Positions 1-7,934 of a DNA stretch of 9,771 bases are shown here, in pieces. Location: the IMG/VR virus record IMGVR_UViG_2706794699_000003; one strand, given 5' to 3'. This DNA comes from a virus. Its lineage: Duplodnaviria > Heunggongvirae > Uroviricota > Caudoviricetes. Positions within the stretch are counted from its first letter, which is position 1; every line of letters starts with the position of its first letter. The notes below the pieces were generated by a model. The model saw only the letters and a program-made list of their open reading frames with translations, made no database searches and was not told where the DNA came from. A program made the position numbers and the translations under genes.

Positions 1-24
1 GATCAAGAGCCTGTCCAATGTGCA

Positions 25-60
25 TAAAAAAATCCGGAAACAAGTGAGCGTTTCCGGATT
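25..60 (-). terminator. Intrinsic terminator about 35 nt downstream of the portal stop
   Basis: Perfect 11-bp inverted repeat (31-41 aatccggaaac / 50-60 gtttccggatt) with an 8-nt loop. The plus-strand A run at 26-32 gives a U7 tract immediately after the hairpin on the minus-strand transcript. Confidence 0.5.
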
Positions 61-92
61 CTTACACAGCCACTGGATCGGTCAACTGATCC

Positions 93-1249
93 TTAACTGA
101 TCGGCATTACACCACCGGGACGCGGATTCATATCTTCCAGGTCGCGGCAGTCATTGGAAGAGTAAATTCCCCAGTTGATCCCGGTGGCGTAGGCTTCAAA
201 ACGGGACTTCATATCCCCGCGCAGTAACGCCCCGGCGTTAAATTTGGCGTAATAAACGCCCTGCTTACTTTTTCGTACCAGTCCGGTGTTGATCCGCTGT
301 TCGATGCGGGTCAGATACGGCACCAGTGAATAGTTGATAAATCCCAGCCCCAGCTCTTCGATATTGTTGAAGGTGGCGCGATCGGTGTTCTGCACCATGT
401 GCAACGGCACCCGGAACAGACGACAGATTTCTTCCAGCTGAAACTTGCGGGTTTCCAGGAACTGACTGTCCTCGGCGTTCAGCGCCATCGACTTCCAGTC
501 CAGCCCCATTTCCAGAATCATCGGGCGGTGAGCATTGCCAAGCCCCGTGTGACACTCCTCAAAATCTTTCTTCAGACGCTCGTAAGCATCCGGCGTGAGC
601 TTTTGTTCCGTACGCAACACACCGGATGTCACCGCACCATTACTAAACAACCTGGCACCGTGCTCCTCGGTTGCCGCTGCCAGTGAAATGGCCTCACGCG
701 CATACGCAATGGGATTCAGCCCGACAAGTCCATCCAGCGTCAGGGTGCGCACATGCCAGATTTCATTCTGGGTCAACACATCCACGGAACCATCCGGAAA
801 CGTCACCTGATAAACCGGCTGCCACTGGCTGTTCAGCTTCGGTTCCACACAGCCCGGATCTATCGGAAGAAGCTCCACCACTTCTCCCAGTGCCTTTACC
901 TTGTAGGCGTAAAAATTCCCCCGTAGACACAGGCAGACAATAACCAGCTCCCAGAATTCCTGCGGTGTCATGTAGCCATTAGGTTTTGCCGAAACCAACT
1001 TATGCAGTCGTTCATCCACCGCCCGTGTTTTCAGGGTACCGCTGATTTTGTAGAGACTGCAGGGCAGCATACCAACAGACTCTGCCAGCACCCTGACGCA
1101 AGAATAGACCGCCGTCAGGCGCATGGCCCGCTGGCTACTGATCCGCTTTCCGGTATAGGTGTCGTATGACAGCCCGATAGCATCAGCAGTTCTGCTGGCG
1201 TGGTCACCGGCACATCGCTTTTTCGTTGAAATAATCCCGAAAAGAACAC
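93..1249 (-). CDS. Phage portal protein, HK97 family; N-terminal region appears frame-disrupted
   Basis: The 415-aa ORF 93..1340 has the conserved portal core (AMRLTAVYSCVRVLAESVGMLP...) and sits directly downstream of the large terminase. The long ORF only has TTG starts at 1340. A GTG at 1249-1247 with a GGAGGT Shine-Dalgarno 5 nt upstream opens a different frame (MFFSGLFQRKSDVPVTTPAELLMLSG...) that stops at 1117-1115. The first in-frame ATG of the main frame is at 1124. Confidence 0.8.
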
Positions 1250-1431
1250 TATTTACCTCCGCCGACAGACTGCCGTGTACGGTCGAGATATCGCGCCACC
1301 AGCCACGACCAGAACAGGCACAGCGCCCCGGCAACAACAAAACCCGCCGGGGGATAAATCAGCCAGGCACCATACGCCAGCAAAAGCGCACCCAGCACGC
1401 CCACCAGAGGCGCGAGAATCAGCATGATCAT
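1249..1431 (-). CDS. Small hydrophobic protein (60 aa, two predicted transmembrane helices), unknown function
   Basis: ATG at 1431-1429 preceded by GAGGT at about 5 nt spacing, 11 nt after the terminase large subunit stop. Product [60 protein letters not shown] has two hydrophobic segments and CTG-rich codon use. Its TAG stop overlaps the candidate GTG portal start (TAGTG). Confidence 0.45.
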
Positions 1432-1442
1432 AATTACCTCAG

Positions 1443-3176
1443 TTAAAGCGAGCGGATCCCGTAGGACTCAATGTGGTCAGACAGCGTGTCTTCTTTCTCG
1501 TACAGCATGGCTCTGCCAACCGCCATAATCAGCGCAACTGCACCATCGATTTTGTTTTCCGCCTGCTCTTTGACGGGTTTCACCACATCATCGTTACCCG
1601 GCATGTTTTTGCCGACCACGTTGCCGATACACCAGGTCATGATGGGATTGCCGTCATGATGAAAACGTCCCGATTCAATCGCTGCTTCCAGCTCTTTCAT
1701 CGGATCGGACATATTGGTGAAGTTCTGGACGATAGTGACGGGATTCAGGTCTTCATCAGCAAGGTCATGTGACAACCCGGTCGCCCCGAAGGGGTCGATG
1801 GGTGACTCACTGACCGGGCTGATTTTGTTCGCCGCTTTGGCCTCCTCGAGGATGTAGCGATAATCCACCTCCGCACCATCGGTAACGGTCAGAACGCCCA
1901 TTTCCACCCATTTCTGAAAGCGTTCGGCTGTCCGTCGATCTTCATTTTTCTCGACGCTGTACACCGTGTCATACGGTACCCAGAAACGCGGGGCCACACT
2001 GTAGTAATGCGTTTTACCGTCAATCTCGCGGGTATAAAGTCGCGCCATGCTGTTCATATCCAGCTTACGCGCCAGGTCAAAGGCCAGAATGCACGGCTGC
2101 CCCTCGAACTGCTCAAGGGTCAGTGATTTATCCTCGCAGCTCTGCCAGCTCACCAAGTTGAAATACGCCGAACGCGCCGACACCCAGATATTGAGGTGTT
2201 TTGTTTTAAAGACGTTTGCCAGACGGGCGTTATTTTTCGCACGCTGCTGCTGACTTAACAAAAATTCGCGATAAACCGACACGCCAATATTTGGATTGGC
2301 TTTTTCCAGCACCTGCGGGCCGGTCCAGTCGTCACCTTCATCAACGGTATAGATGATCCCGAACAGTTCATCGTTAGGCACCGAGCCGTTGAGCATCTCG
2401 ATGACTTCCCGCCGCTTGTCGTAGCACGGCCCCTCAATGTTGTACCCGGCGGTGGTGATGGCCCACATCAGTGGCTGACGTCGCGCCCCCATCCCGGTAA
2501 GCATTGTGGTATAAAGCGCATCGGTGGCATGCTCGTGATATTCATCAACCACGGCACAGTGGGGTGATGAACCATCACCTGGGTTGCCGATCAGCGGTTC
2601 AAACCGCGCGCCATCCTCCGGACGGTTCATGTTTGAGGCGTTAACCTCAATCCCGAACGCTTCCGTCAGCATGGGTGTGCGTTTACACATCAGTCGCGCC
2701 GGGCGAAAGACTTCCCACGCCTGTTTCTCTGTCGTGGCACCGGAATACACTTCCGCGCCAAACTCGTTATCACAGGCAAAACAATACAGGGCAACACCGG
2801 CAGAGATTGCTGATTTGCCGTTCTTACGGGGGATTTCGGTGTACACCTCCCGGAAGCGGCGCAACCGGGTGCCTTTATTGACCCAGCCAAACGCACAGCA
2901 GATCACAAATAGCTGCCACGGCTCCAGCGTGATGGGCATCCGTTTGAATGCCCACTCCCCCTTGGTGTGCGGCAACAGCTGAATAAATTTCGCGGCCCGT
3001 TCAGCCAGGTCCTTGTCGAAGCGGTAACGAAACGACTTACTTTTTTCCGCCATCAGGTCATCAAGATGGCGCTGGCAGGCCTGAATCACAAACTGGCAGG
3101 CAACAATCTTTCCGCGCACGACATCCCGGGCATACTGATTTGCAGCATTTACGTTGGGGTAAGATTTCCGGCTCAT
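1443..3176 (-). CDS. Terminase large subunit
   Basis: 577-aa ORF with terminase ATPase and nuclease-like regions. Its ATG overlaps the small-subunit stop in an ATGA arrangement at 3173-3176. Gene order is terS, terL, portal. Confidence 0.92.
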
Positions 3177-3667
3177 GATTCGATAATTTTCAGAAACGGG
3201 TTAGTGGCTTTCTTCTGCCCCGCCAGGCCAATCAGACGCTGGCGGCTGCTGGGGTCGAGTCCGAGCATTGCCCCCGTGCTGCTCATCTCGGACTCCTGTT
3301 CTTTTTTGGCGGTCAGCTCCGGATTTTTGACCCTGCCGCCCATTGCACCGGTGATGGTGTTGCCCTGTATGGCAATATTTTTCACGGCACGTCGCCAGAA
3401 CTCATAGGCCACGCACCACCGCTCAAGTACCGCCAGGTCAGTCACGCACAGCAGGCCCTGACCGCAGAGTTCTTTGGTTGTCAGTTGCCACATGATCGTG
3501 GCGAGAGGGAGATCTTCTTCAGCGAACCACTCTGGTGGCTCAACACCTTTGATGGGCGTAAAAACAGGTTCATCTTTGTTCAGGGCTCGCTTGCCGGGGT
3601 TTCCGGCCAGCGCCTTGCGCGCCGTTGGCTTGGGGCGACGCCCGGAACGCCCCGCCGTTCCAGCCAT
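3173..3667 (-). CDS. Terminase small subunit, P27 family
   Basis: N-terminus [34 protein letters not shown] is typical of P27-type small subunits. ATG at 3667 has GGAG 9 nt upstream; the GTG at 3676 abuts the Shine-Dalgarno and is less likely. Stop overlaps the terL start. Confidence 0.85.
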
Positions 3668-3699
3668 ATGCGGCACTCCTGGTTAAATTTCATTTTTCG

Positions 3700-3788
3700 C
3701 GGGTATAAAAAAACGATGGGGCGGGCAGTCCGGAAGACGTCAGGTCACAGGGATTTGCCCCGCCCCTCCCTACAAGTGAGAATAATTA
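3700..3788. other. Putative cos / packaging-site region between HNH and terS, with a terminator-like hairpin
   Basis: 89-nt intergenic region. G-rich imperfect inverted repeat (3718-3726 GGGGCGGGC / 3757-3766 GCCCCGCCCC) encloses a loop containing GACGTC. On the minus strand it is followed by ATCG and a T7 tract. HK97-like packaging modules place cos between the HNH gene and terS. Confidence 0.3.
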
Positions 3789-4139
3789 TCACCGGATTCG
3801 TTCGCGCGCTGTTTTCGCTTTATGGCAGGGCCAGCACAGACTCTGCAGGTTGCTGTCTGCGTCTGTTCCGCCATGCGCTTTCGGGATGATGTGGTCGACG
3901 GTTTTCGCCTCGCTCACCACACCGACACGCAGACACAACTGACACAGACCTTTATCGCGCTTCAGAATACGGGCACGAATCACCGTCCATTTTGAGCCAT
4001 AGCCACGCTGGTGGCGGCTCAGTCCGCGCTGGTGCTGCACCCAGCCTTCACCGCGATGTTTATCGCAGTAACCCGAACTGTCTGTGGTTGTACCTGCACA
4101 TCCACGCTTACGGCAGGCACGTGGGATTAGTGATGGCAT
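3789..4139 (-). CDS. HNH endonuclease, packaging-associated
   Basis: 116-aa product with Cys-rich N-terminus (CRKRGCAG...CDKHR) and HNH motif (VDHIIPKAHGGTDADSNLQSLCWPCHKAKT). GAGGT Shine-Dalgarno 5 nt upstream of the ATG at 4139. Position immediately upstream of terS matches HK97-type modules. Confidence 0.88.
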   Translation of the reverse strand: MPSLIPRACRKRGCAGTTTDSSGYCDKHRGEGWVQHQRGLSRHQRGYGSKWTVIRARILKRDKGLCQLCLRVGVVSEAKTVDHIIPKAHGGTDADSNLQSLCWPCHKAKTARERIR

Positions 4140-4181: not shown

Positions 4182-4436
4182 CTACTTAATGCACTGAGTG
4201 CGGATATACTCCTGTGCCCCTTCCAGTTGCATCTGCATCGTCATCAGCCGCTCTCTGAGGGTGAAATAATCCCGTTCAGCGGTGTCTGCCAGTCGGGGGC
4301 TGGTTGCATTATCCACGCCGGAGGCGGTGGTGGCTTCACGCACTGACTGACAGACTGCTTTGATGTGCAACCGACGACGACCAGCGGCAACATCAGCGCG
4401 CAGAGTTTCATTTTCAGCTTTCGCATCAGCTAACTC
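4182..4436 (-). CDS. Rz: Rz i-spanin, C-terminal 84 codons visible; N-terminus lies in the N run
   Basis: ELADAKAENETLRADVAAGRRRLHIKAVCQSVREATTASGVDNATSPRLADTAERDYFTLRERL... is near-identical to the recalled lambda Rz C-terminal half. TAG stop at 4182-4184. Confidence 0.85.
   Translation of the reverse strand, partial: ELADAKAENETLRADVAAGRRRLHIKAVCQSVREATTASGVDNATSPRLADTAERDYFTLRERLMTMQMQLEGAQEYIRTQCIK
4244..4426 (-). CDS. Rz1: Rz1 o-spanin, embedded in the +1 frame of Rz
   Basis: MRKLKMKLCALMLPLVVVGCTSKQSVSQCVKPPPPPAWIMQPAPDWQTPLNGIISPSESG has a lipobox (VVGC) and a proline-rich core, and closely matches recalled lambda Rz1. It lies wholly inside Rz in another frame. Confidence 0.85.
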   Translation of the reverse strand: MRKLKMKLCALMLPLVVVGCTSKQSVSQCVKPPPPPAWIMQPAPDWQTPLNGIISPSESG

Positions 4437-4802
4437 NNNNNNNNNNNNNNNNNNNNNNNNNNNNNNNNNNNNNNNNNNNNNNNNNNNNNNNNNNNNNNNN
4501 NNNNNNNNNNNNNNNNNNNNNNNNNNNNNNNNNNNNNNNNNNNNNNNNNNNNNNNNNNNNNNNNNNNNNNNNNNNNNNNNNNNNNNNNNNNNNNNNNNNN
4601 NNNNNNNNNNNNNNNNNNNNNNNNNNNNNNNNNNNNNNNNNNNNNNNNNNNNNNNNNNNNNNNNNNNNNNNNNNNNNNNNNNNNNNNNNNNNNNNNNNNN
4701 NNNNNNNNNNNNNNNNNNNNNNNNNNNNNNNNNNNNNNNNNNNNNNNNNNNNNNNNNNNNNNNNNNNNNNNNNNNNNNNNNNNNNNNNNNNNNNNNNNNN
4801 NN
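4437..4802. other. Run of 366 N (assembly gap or masked sequence)
   Basis: Uninterrupted n characters. The flanking reading frames imply it hides the endolysin C-terminus and the Rz N-terminus. Confidence 0.99.
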
Positions 4803-5088
4803 CCGGTATATCGACTTTGATGTACGGGTTAATTTGTCTGGCGACAGTGGCAAGGTCTTTATTCAGGAGGGCTTTGCATTCTGCTTCGGTATACGTTTTA
4901 CCGAGCATGATGTCTTTTCCGGTGTGTCCGTGACATACAGTCCATACACCAATGATATCTTTGTATGGTATGTAGCTGACACCTTCCAGACCATCGTTAC
5001 CACCTGGGCCAGTGATTAACACAGATGCTATAGCAACAGCCCCACCACCAATAGCAGCTGCAACAGCCTTGCGTAATGATGGCGACAT
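4803..5088 (-). CDS. R: SAR endolysin (phage 21 R-type lysozyme), N-terminal 95 codons visible
   Basis: [95 protein letters not shown] matches the recalled phage 21 / DLP12 RrrD lysozyme, including the Gly/Ala-rich signal-anchor-release segment. ATG at 5088 has a GAGG Shine-Dalgarno and overlaps the holin stop (TAATG). Confidence 0.85.
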
Positions 5089-5277
5089 TATTCACCTCTC
5101 GCAGCCTTACGCTTGTCTTCTCTTATTTTGAAATACAGATTTGTCAGATAAGTCAGAAGCCCCAGAAGCAGACTTCCCAGCACACCAATCGCAGCCCACT
5201 GTGATGGACTGACCTGATCCAACCACTGCAAAAACCAGTAGCCGGCACTGCCGGCGGAGGTGCCGTANNNNNNNNNN
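5088..5277 (-). CDS. S: Holin, phage 21 S-type pinholin-like; start lies in the N run
   Basis: Minus-strand translation of 5277..5091 gives [59 protein letters not shown], matching recalled S21. TAA stop at 5090-5088 overlaps the endolysin ATG. Not in the ORF track because the start is hidden. Confidence 0.8.
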
Positions 5278-5579
5278 NNNNNNNNNNNNNNNNNNNNNNN
5301 NNNNNNNNNNNNNNNNNNNNNNNNNNNNNNNNNNNNNNNNNNNNNNNNNNNNNNNNNNNNNNNNNNNNNNNNNNNNNNNNNNNNNNNNNNNNNNNNNNNN
5401 NNNNNNNNNNNNNNNNNNNNNNNNNNNNNNNNNNNNNNNNNNNNNNNNNNNNNNNNNNNNNNNNNNNNNNNNNNNNNNNNNNNNNNNNNNNNNNNNNNNN
5501 NNNNNNNNNNNNNNNNNNNNNNNNNNNNNNNNNNNNNNNNNNNNNNNNNNNNNNNNNNNNNNNNNNNNNNNNNNNNNNN
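5278..5579. other. Run of 302 N (assembly gap or masked sequence)
   Basis: Uninterrupted n characters. It hides roughly 9 holin codons and about 275 nt upstream of the holin. Confidence 0.99.
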
Positions 5580-5642: not shown

Positions 5643-5717
<75 letters not shown>

Positions 5718-5720
5718 ATA

Positions 5721-5796
<76 letters not shown>

Positions 5797-5798
5797 GC

Positions 5799-5875
5799 TG
5801 GCCCACCACCGAGGACTCGAACCTCGCACCGTCAACTTAGAAGGTTGATGCTCTATCCGGATGAGCTAGTGGTGG
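5799..5875 (-). tRNA. tRNA-Arg, anticodon UCU
   Basis: Reverse complement CCACCACTAGCTCATCCGGATAGAGCATCAACCTTCTAAGTTGACGGTGCGAGGTTCGAGTCCTCGGTGGTGGGCCA. Perfect acceptor stem CCACCAC/GTGGTGG (unusual C1:G72), D loop with GG, anticodon loop CTTCTAA, T arm CGAGG-TTCGAGT-CCTCG. Confidence 0.75.
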
Positions 5876-5876
5876 T

Positions 5877-5953
5877 TGGTGGCCCTTGCTGGACTTGAAC
5901 CAGCGACCTGGCGATTATGAGTCGCTCGCTCTGACCAACTGAGCTAAAGGGCC
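5877..5953 (-). tRNA. tRNA with CAU anticodon, most likely tRNA-Ile2 (lysidine type) rather than Met
   Basis: Reverse complement GGCCCTTTAGCTCAGTTGGTCAGAGCGAGCGACTCATAATCGCCAGGTCGCTGGTTCAAGTCCAGCAAGGGCCACCA. Anticodon loop CTCATAA; T arm GCTGG-TTCAAGT-CCAGC and anticodon arm resemble recalled E. coli ileX. Corresponds to the ileZ-like tRNA of lambdoid phages. Confidence 0.75.
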
Positions 5954-6142: not shown

Positions 6143-6706
6143 TTAAAACCGCATCAACCGCTCCACCAGTTGCTCTTTACGGGCAACGATCCACCCGTGT
6201 TGCTCCAGATAAAATTTAAACCGTTCCAGAGTACATACCATCGCATCGGCGGGTACCTTTTCCGTGAACTCAACCTGACCGTGTTTATCGAAGTGGCTCA
6301 GTAATGCGCATCCATCATTTTCGATAGATGTGTTTTGTGCCGCTGGTGGCTGTTTCTGGTTGAAATAACAGTCTTCCAGTTTTTCGAACACTTCCCACGC
6401 CTGATCGGTTTCGAGCATTTTGGCGTGACGGGCTGCGCCACGTTCTGTCCAGAGGATGAGGGAGCGAACGTTACGGGCAATTTTCACAGAAACTCTTAAA
6501 GAGTTTTCGTTCTTCAACTCTCGTAACGCATCACCTTCTATCAGGAAAAAATGTTTACCTTCTATAAACCGTTCTTTGTTTCGATTGAAATTGTTTGTCA
6601 AACGCTGGCGCTCTGTTCCGTACAAATCAGCCAGCAGCTCTGTTGTCATGACAGGAAGATGGTTATGCGTAAGTGACGGGAGTTTTTCAATAGACGTGCG
6701 ATTCAT
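6143..6706 (-). CDS. ORF6N-domain protein (N-terminal DNA-binding domain of the phage Rha/antirepressor class) with an uncharacterised C-terminal domain of about 90 aa
   Basis: Motif LPVMTTELLADLYGTERQRLTNNFNRNKERFIEGKHFFLIEGDALRELK fits the ORF6N pattern (LYGV-T-RLN-RN-RF-F-L). Preferred start is the ATG at 6706 with AAGGA 7 nt upstream; the GTG-initiated extension to 6904 looks like non-coding leader. Sits between tR' and the tRNA array. Confidence 0.75.
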   Translation of the reverse strand: MNRTSIEKLPSLTHNHLPVMTTELLADLYGTERQRLTNNFNRNKERFIEGKHFFLIEGDALRELKNENSLRVSVKIARNVRSLILWTERGAARHAKMLETDQAWEVFEKLEDCYFNQKQPPAAQNTSIENDGCALLSHFDKHGQVEFTEKVPADAMVCTLERFKFYLEQHGWIVARKEQLVERLMRF

Positions 6707-6849
6707 AGACATGTCCTTTCGAATATTTTGATTTACCCCTTTTGAGAGGGTGACCGGGCGCTCAAAACCGTCGAAAGTCGGCGGGCGTATTTCCATTGCT
6801 GGTATTGTATTAGCCGCACACCCGGTCATAAACCAAGAATTCTGGACAC

Positions 6850-6877
6850 AAAAAAACCACATGGCTATCGGGTGTGG
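6850..6877 (-). terminator. Second intrinsic terminator/attenuator downstream of pR'
   Basis: Minus strand CCACA-CCCGATAGCCA-TGTGG followed by TTTTTTT (plus-strand A7 run 6850-6856). Lies between the internal promoter candidate and the ORF6N start. Confidence 0.4.
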
Positions 6878-6912
6878 ATACCGCTTTCGAGGTGTTTTGA
6901 GCACCGCGGGGA

Positions 6913-6941
6913 AATGTAAACTGCAAACCTGAAACTGTCAA
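6913..6941 (-). promoter_or_regulatory. Candidate sigma-70 promoter internal to the Q-to-cargo intergenic region
   Basis: Minus strand TTGACA (6941..6936), 17-nt spacer, TACATT (6918..6913). Confidence 0.35.
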
Positions 6942-7065
6942 CACCGTCAGGTTCCAATCATCGGGTGGTGAGACGCACAGGGTTGGAACTACCGGGAAAC
7001 CGACCGGCGAGCTTTTCAGCTCCCCCATGCGCCCCACCATAATTCAGATGTGCGCGTGCATACGA

Positions 7066-7091
7066 CAATAAAAAACACGCTCGCGGCGTGT
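7066..7091 (-). terminator. tR'-like intrinsic terminator about 80 nt downstream of the pR' candidate
   Basis: Minus strand ACACGC-CGCGA-GCGTGT followed by TTTTTATTG (plus-strand stem 7075-7091, A run 7070-7074). Confidence 0.5.
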
Positions 7092-7152
7092 GTCTGTCGC
7101 GGTCTCTATCCGGGGTTCCAATCCCGACGCCAGATTTTGCTGGCGCGTGAGG

Positions 7153-7182
7153 AATATAGCCCCGGACAATGTGTCTGGTCAA
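7153..7182 (-). promoter_or_regulatory. pR'-like late promoter immediately downstream of Q
   Basis: Minus strand TTGACC (7182..7177), 18-nt spacer, TATATT (7158..7153), starting 5 nt after the Q stop. Position matches lambdoid pR'. Confidence 0.45.
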
Positions 7183-7186
7183 GCAC

Positions 7187-7573
7187 CTACATAATTCGTT
7201 CTACGTATCTGTCCATCTCCAGCCGGATATCAAGCATCATCAACATGCCATCAATAACCCCTTCCGCTTTCTGCAGGCGCTTGCCAATACAGGTATCCGA
7301 ACACCCATGTTTCCGTGCCAGACTCATAAAAGTCATTCCACCTACGTAATAATCCACCAGCAAATCGTGCAAATCCTGATTTTTCTTGTTCAACCGGGCC
7401 ATACAGCCACAAATTATCATTGCATCATCATCAGAACACTGAGGGCGTGATTTCACTTTCGACGGAATTAACCCTTTAAAACCAGCAGCGATCGACGCCC
7501 AGGATACATCTTCATGAGTGTTTGCAGCCCAAGCCCCCCACCGTTCCATAACCTGCTGAATATCACGCGCCAT
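7187..7573 (-). CDS. Q: Late-gene antiterminator Q (QuuD / phage 82-21 type)
   Basis: [61 protein letters not shown]...[20 protein letters not shown] closely resembles recalled E. coli prophage QuuD. ATG at 7573 has AGGTGA 5 nt upstream and overlaps the RusA end by 11 nt; the ATG at 7594 is less likely. Confidence 0.85.
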
Positions 7574-7934
7574 CGTTATCACCTGTGATTTCATAAATCT
7601 TCACGCCCAGTCGCCCACCAGGAACGAGCTGACCGCGCACAATATTGATTTCATCAAACTGCTCGTCGTCTATGAGTAGTCCGGCATGCGTCAGCGCATC
7701 CAGTGGTGCTTTCAGGATATTGTCCAGGTCACGACGGCGCTTATCCGGTGGCTCTGCAATAATCTTTATCGCCAGCCTTCCGGACAGGTTTAATTTCAGC
7801 CGCTGCTGGCGAACAATTAGCGTCACATCACGGCGATAACGCTCACCAACTTTTGATACAAAATATGTGCTGCCACGACGTCGCCAGTAAGTATTCACCG
7901 TCGGCGGATAAGGTAAAATAAACTCATGGCGCAT
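7563..7934 (-). CDS. rusA: RusA Holliday-junction resolvase
   Basis: 123-aa product with the RusA catalytic region ([30 protein letters not shown]). Sits immediately upstream of Q, as in lambdoid nin regions. Confidence 0.9.

Follow-up and report, generated by a model that had tools for sequence, protein, structure and literature searches.

We analysed a stretch of 9,771 nucleotides (nt) from the Caudoviricetes virus record IMGVR_UViG_2706794699_000003 of IMG/VR (hereafter the window), in which an open reading frame (ORF) of 60 codons lies on the minus strand between the gene for the terminase large subunit (TerL; terL) and the portal gene. The ORF is virtually certain to be a member of the YmfR family (PHROG 502) and is called ymfR below. 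It runs from an ATG at 1431–1429 to a TAG at 1251–1249, and exactly 11 nt (1442–1432) separate the terL stop codon (TAA, 1445–1443) from its start. The GAGG core of its Shine-Dalgarno sequence (1440–1437) is conserved in phiP27, ST64B, a Klebsiella phage and other enterobacterial loci. At the other end, the last ymfR codons (GGAGG, 1260–1256, in the context GGAGGTAAATAGTG) also serve as the portal ribosome-binding site, and the stop codon overlaps a GTG at 1249–1247 that is the portal start annotated in phiP27. CTG makes up 8 of the 12 leucine codons. The G+C content at third codon positions (GC3) was 0.667 for ymfR, 0.648 for terL and 0.659 for the terminase small subunit gene (terS). No promoter-like (sigma-70-like) or intrinsic-terminator-like site was found near 1249–1445 on the minus strand. 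The coordinates of all features are collected in Table 1.

Table 1 Features of the ymfR locus and of the neighbouring genes in the window.
Feature	Coordinates	Strand	Basis
YmfR-family gene, 60 codons + TAG, small two-helix membrane protein	1249..1431	-	ORF list, sequence, PHROG 502, K-12 identity, dN/dS
Shine-Dalgarno core GAGG of ymfR, 5 nt 5' of ATG	1437..1440	-	sequence
Predicted transmembrane helix 1, residues ~2–24, conserved G11, G14, G21, W23	1360..1428	-	hydropathy, AlphaFold2 helix 2–25, invariant columns
Tight turn IYPPAG, residues 25–30, most conserved stretch, family motif YxPAG	1342..1359	-	close and distant alignments
Predicted transmembrane helix 2, residues ~31–46, conserved G35, C38, W41, S42	1294..1341	-	hydropathy, AlphaFold2 helix 27–57, alignment
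Basic, sequence-variable C-terminal tail, residues 47–60, presumably cytoplasmic	1252..1293	-	tail pN/pS, charges
TAGTG stop/start overlap coupling ymfR to the portal gene	1247..1251	-	sequence
Portal gene (PF04860), pseudogene	93..1249	-	Pfam E = 3e-107; alignment with phiP27, ST64B, Klebsiella phage
TerL C-terminal tail, co-varying with portal and ORF type, not with the rest of TerL	1446..1499	-	tail comparison of mosaic loci
Terminase large subunit gene, intact, 577 amino acids	1443..3176	-	PF03354, PF20441, PHROG 9
P27-family terminase small subunit gene	3173..3676	-	PF05119
HNH endonuclease gene of packaging module	3789..4139	-	PF01844
Lysis cassette	4182–5290	-	profile matches, ORF list, position
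P21-type pinholin (PF04971)	5088–5231 visible	-	Pfam
Lysozyme-like ORF, hydrophobic N-terminus, probable signal-anchor-release (SAR) endolysin	4426–5088	-	ORF list
Rz-sized ORF	4182–4853	-	by position
Rz1 lipoprotein (PF06085), nested in Rz-sized ORF	4244–4426	-	profile

The encoded protein has a grand average of hydropathy (GRAVY) of 1.16. Its 15-residue Kyte-Doolittle means reached 2.7 over residues ~2–24 and 2.2 over residues ~31–46, and the charged residues (R47, D50, R51, R53 and K60) are confined to the C-terminal tail. AlphaFold2, run with a 20-sequence alignment, gave a helical hairpin (residues 2–25 and 27–57) with a mean predicted local distance difference test score of 74. Judged by hydropathy, charge and the positive-inside rule, YmfR would sit in the inner membrane with both termini in the cytoplasm (N-in/C-in) and with IYPPAG as a periplasmic turn of 5–6 residues. 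A preliminary description of the window had already noted the Shine-Dalgarno sequence, the 11-nt spacing, the CTG-rich codon use, the two hydrophobic helices and the overlap with a likely GTG portal start, and all of these were confirmed.

The gene belongs to a known, named family with no function assigned to any member. PHROG 502, a 'membrane protein' family placed in the category 'moron, auxiliary metabolic gene and host takeover', was matched at E = 2.8e-28 (residues 1–55 against profile positions 3–57 of 58). K-12 YmfR (b1150; 58/60 residues identical), phiP27 L37 (59/60), ST64B Sb3 (58/60) and the SfI/SfII protein, with PHROG 502, are orthologues of the same length (97–98% identity), and they share the position between terL (aaaE/ymfN in prophage e14) and the portal gene (beeE in e14) as well as the TAGTG junction. 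The e14 prophage of MG1655 has the order ymfN (a chimeric terminase), ymfR and beeE (a portal fragment). When window positions 1–4100 (4.1 kb) were searched by megablast, 3631 of 5426 complete Escherichia coli genomes gave matches, and the RefSeq label of the ORF in the top-ranked E. coli records is "ymfR: protein YmfR". Elsewhere the product is named "IPR020297 domain-containing protein YmfR" (MG1655), "putative integral membrane protein" (GenBank annotation of phiP27, SfII and 118970_sal3) or "membrane protein" (the SfI RefSeq record).

Sequence searches of Pfam, NCBIfam, PADLOC and the PDB with YmfR returned sub-threshold noise only, and the PADLOC anti-phage defence models gave 0 families at E ≤ 10. 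Foldseek with the predicted hairpin against BFVD found nothing at E ≤ 0.001 and generic helical hairpins only, a two-helix hairpin being a fold that does not discriminate in structure searches. The literature on a membrane protein between terminase and portal yielded unrelated cases only: a Neisseria holin candidate of 49 amino acids (aa) located elsewhere, PRD1 P20/P22, SPP1 and mycobacteriophage Patience.

The same slot is filled in lambda by gpW, a head-tail adaptor of 68 aa whose gene lies between terL (A) and the portal gene (B) and overlaps both neighbours. However, gpW is soluble and highly charged, in contrast to the hydrophobic YmfR hairpin; BLASTP of gpW against YmfR gave nothing at E ≤ 100, and no gpW family appeared in the Pfam scan of YmfR. 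Records ON470603, ON470584, ON470580 and PQ793804 name the YmfR-family ORF 'head-tail joining protein W'. Because lambda W shares the slot but is a charged soluble protein without detectable similarity, this label was rejected as a positional mis-annotation of a gpW-unlike sequence. Near-identical enterobacterial terL-ymfR-portal DNA was also met under Gram-positive names, in a metagenome-assembled genome labelled 'Bacillota bacterium' (JAEWTL010000102; L088) and in OR844959, 'Enterococcus phage Efm 3-10', and a binning or labelling error is the likely cause of this naming.

Conservation of the gene and of its position

The window holds 73 ORFs of at least 40 aa, and an ORF of the size of ymfR is not significant by itself; it is the comparative data on homologues, profile matches and substitution rates that set it apart from chance. 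More than 160 close homologues were found. A profile search of 1.84 billion cluster representatives returned 401 proteins at E ≤ 0.001, nearly all of 45–80 aa, and a profile built for distant members matched more than 1271 clusters, every one "hypothetical" and none with a Pfam domain. Over these 401 and more than 1271 matches, the length of 50–77 aa is kept. The ratio of nonsynonymous to synonymous substitution rates (dN/dS) was measured against 10 homologues of 47–65% protein identity, from Klebsiella, Mangrovibacter, Scandinavium, Serratia, Citrobacter and Martelella genomes and a Marinobacter phage; it was 0.19–0.57, with values of 0.2–0.3 against divergent homologues and with synonymous sites near saturation. 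The corresponding ratio of proportions (pN/pS) was ~0.25 for residues 1–47 and ~1 for the tail. At the level of sequence, these values show purifying selection on the predicted helices and turn and a conserved protein-coding gene. A chance ORF is ruled out by the close homologues, the 401 cluster representatives and the dN/dS values. Two plus-strand ORFs (1159–1446 and 1275–1427) overlap the locus, and it is the minus-strand frame that accounts for the conservation.

The invariant or near-invariant residues are G11, G14, L17, L18, G21, W23, the I-Y-P-P-A-G turn, G35, C38, W41 and S42, and the family-wide core motif reads SYGAWL[IV]YxPAG[FY]I[VT]xG. The tail is constant in length, remains basic and ends in GG[DEK], whose codons (GGAGG, GGTGA, GGGGA) double as the portal ribosome-binding site. 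We also considered the PP of IYPPAG as a stalling site, dependent on elongation factor P, that regulates the portal; this was rejected since distant members keep only xPAG. A frameshift breaks the family ORF in two in one of a pair of Shigella flexneri copies (L096, CP182557, 3001–3179) and in the record of Halomonas phage QHHSV-1 (L188, 599–790), through either real decay or sequence error.

All 17 species-representative genome loci contained terL sequence, the ORF and a portal gene (with a terL fragment in three e14-type loci and in L103), and the ORF-portal junction was TAGTG, TAATG or TGATG in every one. We gathered a further 80 distant viral contigs by the motif W[LR][IVT]YxPAG[FY]. The downstream gene was a phiP27 portal homologue, 27–89% identical, at 77 of these 80 loci, and the stop/start gap was -1 or -4 at 71. 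An upstream ORF was present at 72 distant loci, and at 63 it was terL, often overlapping too. In marine and Pseudomonas contigs, precomputed Pfam matches gave the order holin, HNH, Terminase_4, TerL, ORF, Phage_portal, Peptidase_S78 and Phage_capsid; the HNH-terS-terL-ORF-portal order of the window therefore recurs there, and the holin of these distant relatives is a separate Phage_holin_3_5 gene. The position of the family is constant over portals of 27–100% identity and is never beside an endolysin gene. These results show that ymfR is a fixed component of P27/SfV-type head-packaging modules, which comprise HNH, terS, terL, the ORF, portal, S78 protease and capsid. The preliminary description had proposed looking for a conserved ORF at related terL-portal junctions and comparing synonymous with nonsynonymous change; an in-frame ORF was present at all 17 genome loci and at the distant loci, and the dN/dS values point the same way. 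Its picture of a small membrane protein coupled to packaging genes also held, the TAGTG overlap, the synteny and the dN/dS values marking a genuine gene that looks translated.

Two-helix ORFs were found in the same slot in Yersinia phage YeP2, Marinobacter phage AS1, Ralstonia phage YO021_1 and, in a frameshifted record, a Halomonas phage. In small searches, the family hidden Markov model (HMM) matched the Ralstonia ORF at E = 7e-6 and an ORF of SfV, described below, at E = 9e-8. Hairpin ORFs also fill the slot in Pseudomonas PG1 (57 aa), Vibrio K259 (67 aa), Mycobacterium phage Yeet (gp9, 62 aa, annotated "membrane protein") and Bacillus rho14 (gp4, 76 aa); these four are at best borderline matches to the family HMM and may be very distant members or analogues. 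Like YmfR, the SfV, Ralstonia, PG1, K259, Yeet and rho14 ORFs combine this slot with a two-helix architecture and a basic tail. A restriction of the family to Gram-negative hosts was rejected on account of the same-slot hairpin ORFs in Yeet and rho14.

No gene occupies the slot in HK97, mEpX2, Streptococcus phi29854, Terrisporobacter TPDSL_ph1, Clostridium phiCp-B, Stenotrophomonas BUCT603, Xanthomonas NR08 and Sinorhizobium AP-16-3, and Moraxella Mcat12 has a short terL-portal gap without an ORF. The earlier statement that HK97-type modules run from terL to portal with no intervening gene is therefore correct for HK97 itself but not for P27/SfV-type modules, the window included. A hydrophobic portal N-terminus (MFFSGLF...) was tried as a marker of hairpin-bearing phages and discarded, as similar N-termini occur in phages without the ORF. 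In Campylobacter phage CJIE4-1 (L193), a MazF toxin gene fills the terL-portal gap (117–551), and the slot can therefore also take genuine insertions.

Co-inheritance with the portal

Identities of TerL, ORF and portal were correlated over 49 non-redundant loci. ORF identity followed portal identity with a Mantel r of 0.74; the partial rank correlation was 0.41 with portal when terL was controlled for, and 0.03 with terL when portal was controlled for. Where two loci shared more than 80% identity in terL but less than 50% in portal, their ORFs were 26% identical, whereas in pairs with portal above 70% and terL below 50% the ORFs were 58% identical. The Serratia loci illustrate the second pattern, with TerL 35–37%, portal 74% and ORF 52–66% identical. 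SfV illustrates the first, its TerL being 98% and its portal 28% identical to those of the window.

SfV (L005, NC_003444) had appeared to lack the gene, which suggested presence or absence by portal type. This was rejected, as SfV holds an unannotated, divergent copy: a 53-aa two-helix ORF, MKSLIADVIGLAGFGLLTCGVYLQFGMAPALILSGALLLVGALAMARRGTRAA, at 2289–2450 between terL and portal, 21–29% identical to YmfR-type members. As annotated, the SfV portal gene probably starts too far upstream (GTG 2392), and a GTG near 2437, preceded by the ribosome-binding site GGGGGA, agrees better with the homologues.

The C-terminal tail of TerL behaves in the same way as the ORF. We compared window positions 1446–1499 with loci L097, L100, L102 and L005. 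The last ~18 TerL residues (...SLS.HIE[ST][YH]G[IL]R[ST]L) are common to TerLs that are otherwise 35% identical, and they are replaced in the 98%-identical TerL of SfV, whose homology to the window stops at about 1504. Because this tail co-varies with portal type rather than with the remaining TerL, the comparison places the recombination joint between packaging and head modules inside terL, ~60 nt before its stop, and the co-inherited unit is the TerL tail, the hairpin ORF and the portal. Membership of ymfR in the portal module is very likely. In lambda, prohead (portal) binding is determined by the C-terminal end of gpA. The ORF had been presented in the preliminary description as an extra, inserted one; it is instead the known ymfR/PHROG 502, a deeply conserved and vertically co-inherited part of the portal module with no promoter or terminator of its own and with ordinary composition.

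The decayed portal gene and the surrounding prophage

The portal gene of the window is decayed. Its GTG frame ends after only 44 codons because one nucleotide is deleted at ~1187/1188 in comparison with phiP27, ST64B and the Klebsiella phage. Homology to portal is lost at ~110, the 3' ~100 nt are replaced, and the head and tail genes that would follow are absent. The portal lesions are not read errors, since the window sequence recurs across them with 100% identity in five IMG/VR contigs. The prophage is defective, its portal gene being both frameshifted and truncated. Within this remnant, which is incapable of making heads, ymfR itself remains intact, as in e14, where the portal gene beside ymfR is decayed as well. 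Right after the truncated portal ORF, at 25–60 on the minus strand, an inverted repeat (AATCCGGAAAC...GTTTCCGGATT) followed by a T-run resembles an intrinsic terminator. Positions 1–98 had no match among complete E. coli genomes, and the host is therefore probably another enterobacterium.

Upstream of terL lie the terminase small subunit gene, the HNH endonuclease gene and the lysis cassette, parts of which are hidden by runs of N at 4437–4802 and 5268–5579. Four tandem transfer RNA genes (Gly-tcc, Thr-tgt, Arg-tct and Met-cat) occupy 5643–5953 on the minus strand, between the Q/antirepressor region and the lysis cassette. Rfam matches above the gathering score were found at 6744–7159 on the same strand: isrK (7070–7146), C4 antisense RNA (6961–7044), c4-a1b1 targets (7107–7159) and sRNA-Xcc1 (6744–6827). 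These RNAs sit between the gene for antiterminator Q (7187–7594) and that for an ORF6N-domain protein (6143–6904), a layout that resembles the isrK/anrP/antQ arrangement of Salmonella Gifsy-1.

Possible roles of YmfR

As an overall explanation, we propose that YmfR acts at the inner membrane as a partner in portal assembly or in packaging, to which we give a probability of about 0.45. The hairpin would insert co-translationally into the inner membrane and carry along the terL-ORF-portal mRNA with the nascent portal. Synthesis of the portal would then take place at the membrane surface, where portal rings, procapsid initiation or packaging could be nucleated, and the hairpin would tether or chaperone portal-ring formation, procapsid initiation or motor docking. 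T4 offers a proposed functional analogy: its gp20 portal initiator is membrane-bound, and the formation of this initiator at the inner membrane requires gp40, a phage factor that connects portal assembly with the membrane (PMC9958956). Membrane tethering or chaperoning as the specific mechanism is conceivable but somewhat unlikely. Genes 40 and 20 of T4 are not adjacent.

Several observations count against a role in portal assembly or packaging. HK97, mEpX2 and several phages of Gram-positive or Gram-negative hosts have related portals without a hairpin gene, and a portal of the same family can therefore work without the hairpin. YmfR is probably an accessory and not a universal factor, given that HK97 itself has no such gene. 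No sequence or fold link from YmfR to a characterised protein was found in Pfam, NCBIfam, PADLOC, the PDB or by Foldseek. Literature searches on ymfR yielded gene lists only, from work on e14 deletions, an ASKA screen and an SOS/antibiotic transcriptome. The membrane topology is deduced from hydropathy and charge only. Finally, co-inheritance with the portal could be a mere consequence of overlapping genes that recombination cannot separate.

Three other roles for the protein appear improbable. The first is that of a lysis modulator, namely a second holin, an antiholin or the lysis timing factor suggested in the preliminary description. YmfR resembles class II holins and pinholins (phage 21 S, PF04971) in its small size, its two putative transmembrane helices, its presumed N-in/C-in topology and its basic C-terminal tail, and placement in the late operon would mean late expression. 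Lysis genes can lie in packaging modules, as do T7 genes 17.5, 18.5 and 18.7. However, YmfR matched no holin family in Pfam or NCBIfam at E ≤ 1, and its family always adjoins the portal gene. The window has a complete lysis cassette elsewhere, with a true P21-type pinholin, a lysozyme-like ORF and Rz1 within the Rz-sized ORF, and the distant relatives have their own holin gene. In a published screen, the ASKA ymfR clone grew under induction with 0.1 mM isopropyl β-D-thiogalactoside (PMC10299036); this evidence is weak because the construct was tagged.

The second is a superinfection exclusion or host-takeover membrane protein, comparable to HK97 gp15, an inner-membrane exclusion protein. The category label of PHROG 502 favours it, and exclusion factors commonly take the form of small inner-membrane proteins. 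Like gp15-type morons, ymfR encodes a small membrane protein within a structural operon. Morons are characterised by a promoter and terminator of their own, by unusual composition and by a patchy distribution. None of these traits was found in ymfR: it has no promoter or terminator of its own, its GC3 is that of its neighbours, and its position and translational coupling are constant across very distant phages. The moron reading was rejected on these grounds, and PADLOC gave no match. In a published transcriptome table (PMC10012262), e14 ymfR was up 4.5 log2 along with other e14 genes under an SOS-inducing treatment, and ymfR is probably not expressed in the lysogen. The exclusion protein put forward in the preliminary description therefore finds little support.

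The third is a virion-associated or ejection protein, in which the hairpin would be packaged at the portal vertex, insert into the inner membrane of the recipient cell and aid DNA entry. Co-inheritance with the portal is compatible with such a role, and the conserved part of the hairpin is its periplasm-proximal half. On the other side, no virion proteomics was found in the literature, and a protein of 60 residues with such a GRAVY value and no soluble domain would be hard to hold inside a capsid.

It is very improbable that the ORF is a translational spacer only, handing ribosomes from terL to portal and setting portal dosage through a functionless peptide. A spacer would be consistent with the overlap of stop and start codons at one or both ends in most loci and with the use of the C-terminal ymfR codons as portal ribosome-binding site, but the amino acids of the helices and turn are strongly conserved despite saturated synonymous sites, and HK97 joins terL directly to portal without such an ORF. 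Least credible of all is a small hydrophobic toxin (type I toxin-like; the preliminary description had also suggested a toxin-like peptide) or a chance ORF: size and hydrophobicity are the only points for a toxin, whereas Rfam shows no antisense RNA family at the ymfR locus, the gene lies inside a coupled operon rather than standing alone, and the viability of the induced ASKA clone indicates that YmfR is probably not a strong toxin. The moron, holin and toxin readings are all poorly supported, given the lack of an own promoter or terminator, the ordinary composition and the separate P21-type holin.

As a sequence feature ymfR is ordinary, since the packaging-module DNA around it occurs in about two-thirds of complete E. 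coli genomes. What the present analysis adds is that ymfR accompanies one large portal lineage as a fixed, co-inherited gene, with a range that extends from enterobacteria to viral contigs of marine and soil origin. For annotation, it follows that the 'head-tail joining protein W' labels are wrong, that the SfV copy has gone unannotated and that the SfV portal start is probably mis-set. The interest of the gene is modest and rests on the portal linkage and these corrections. Beyond the window, a large class of HK97-type phages, so far unrecognised, may use a dedicated two-helix inner-membrane anchor or chaperone for portal/procapsid initiation or packaging, coupled to the portal in translation and co-adapted with it and with the TerL tail, a generalisation that we consider unlikely; the class would be the phages with P27-family terS and SfV-type modules, perhaps together with mycobacteriophage cluster J and Bacillus phi105-like phages. 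To our knowledge, membrane-bound head assembly has so far been documented mainly for T4. If the generalisation is true, such assembly would be widespread. If YmfR does tether or chaperone the portal at the membrane, a missing component would be added to the assembly pathway of HK97-type phages, a structural model system.

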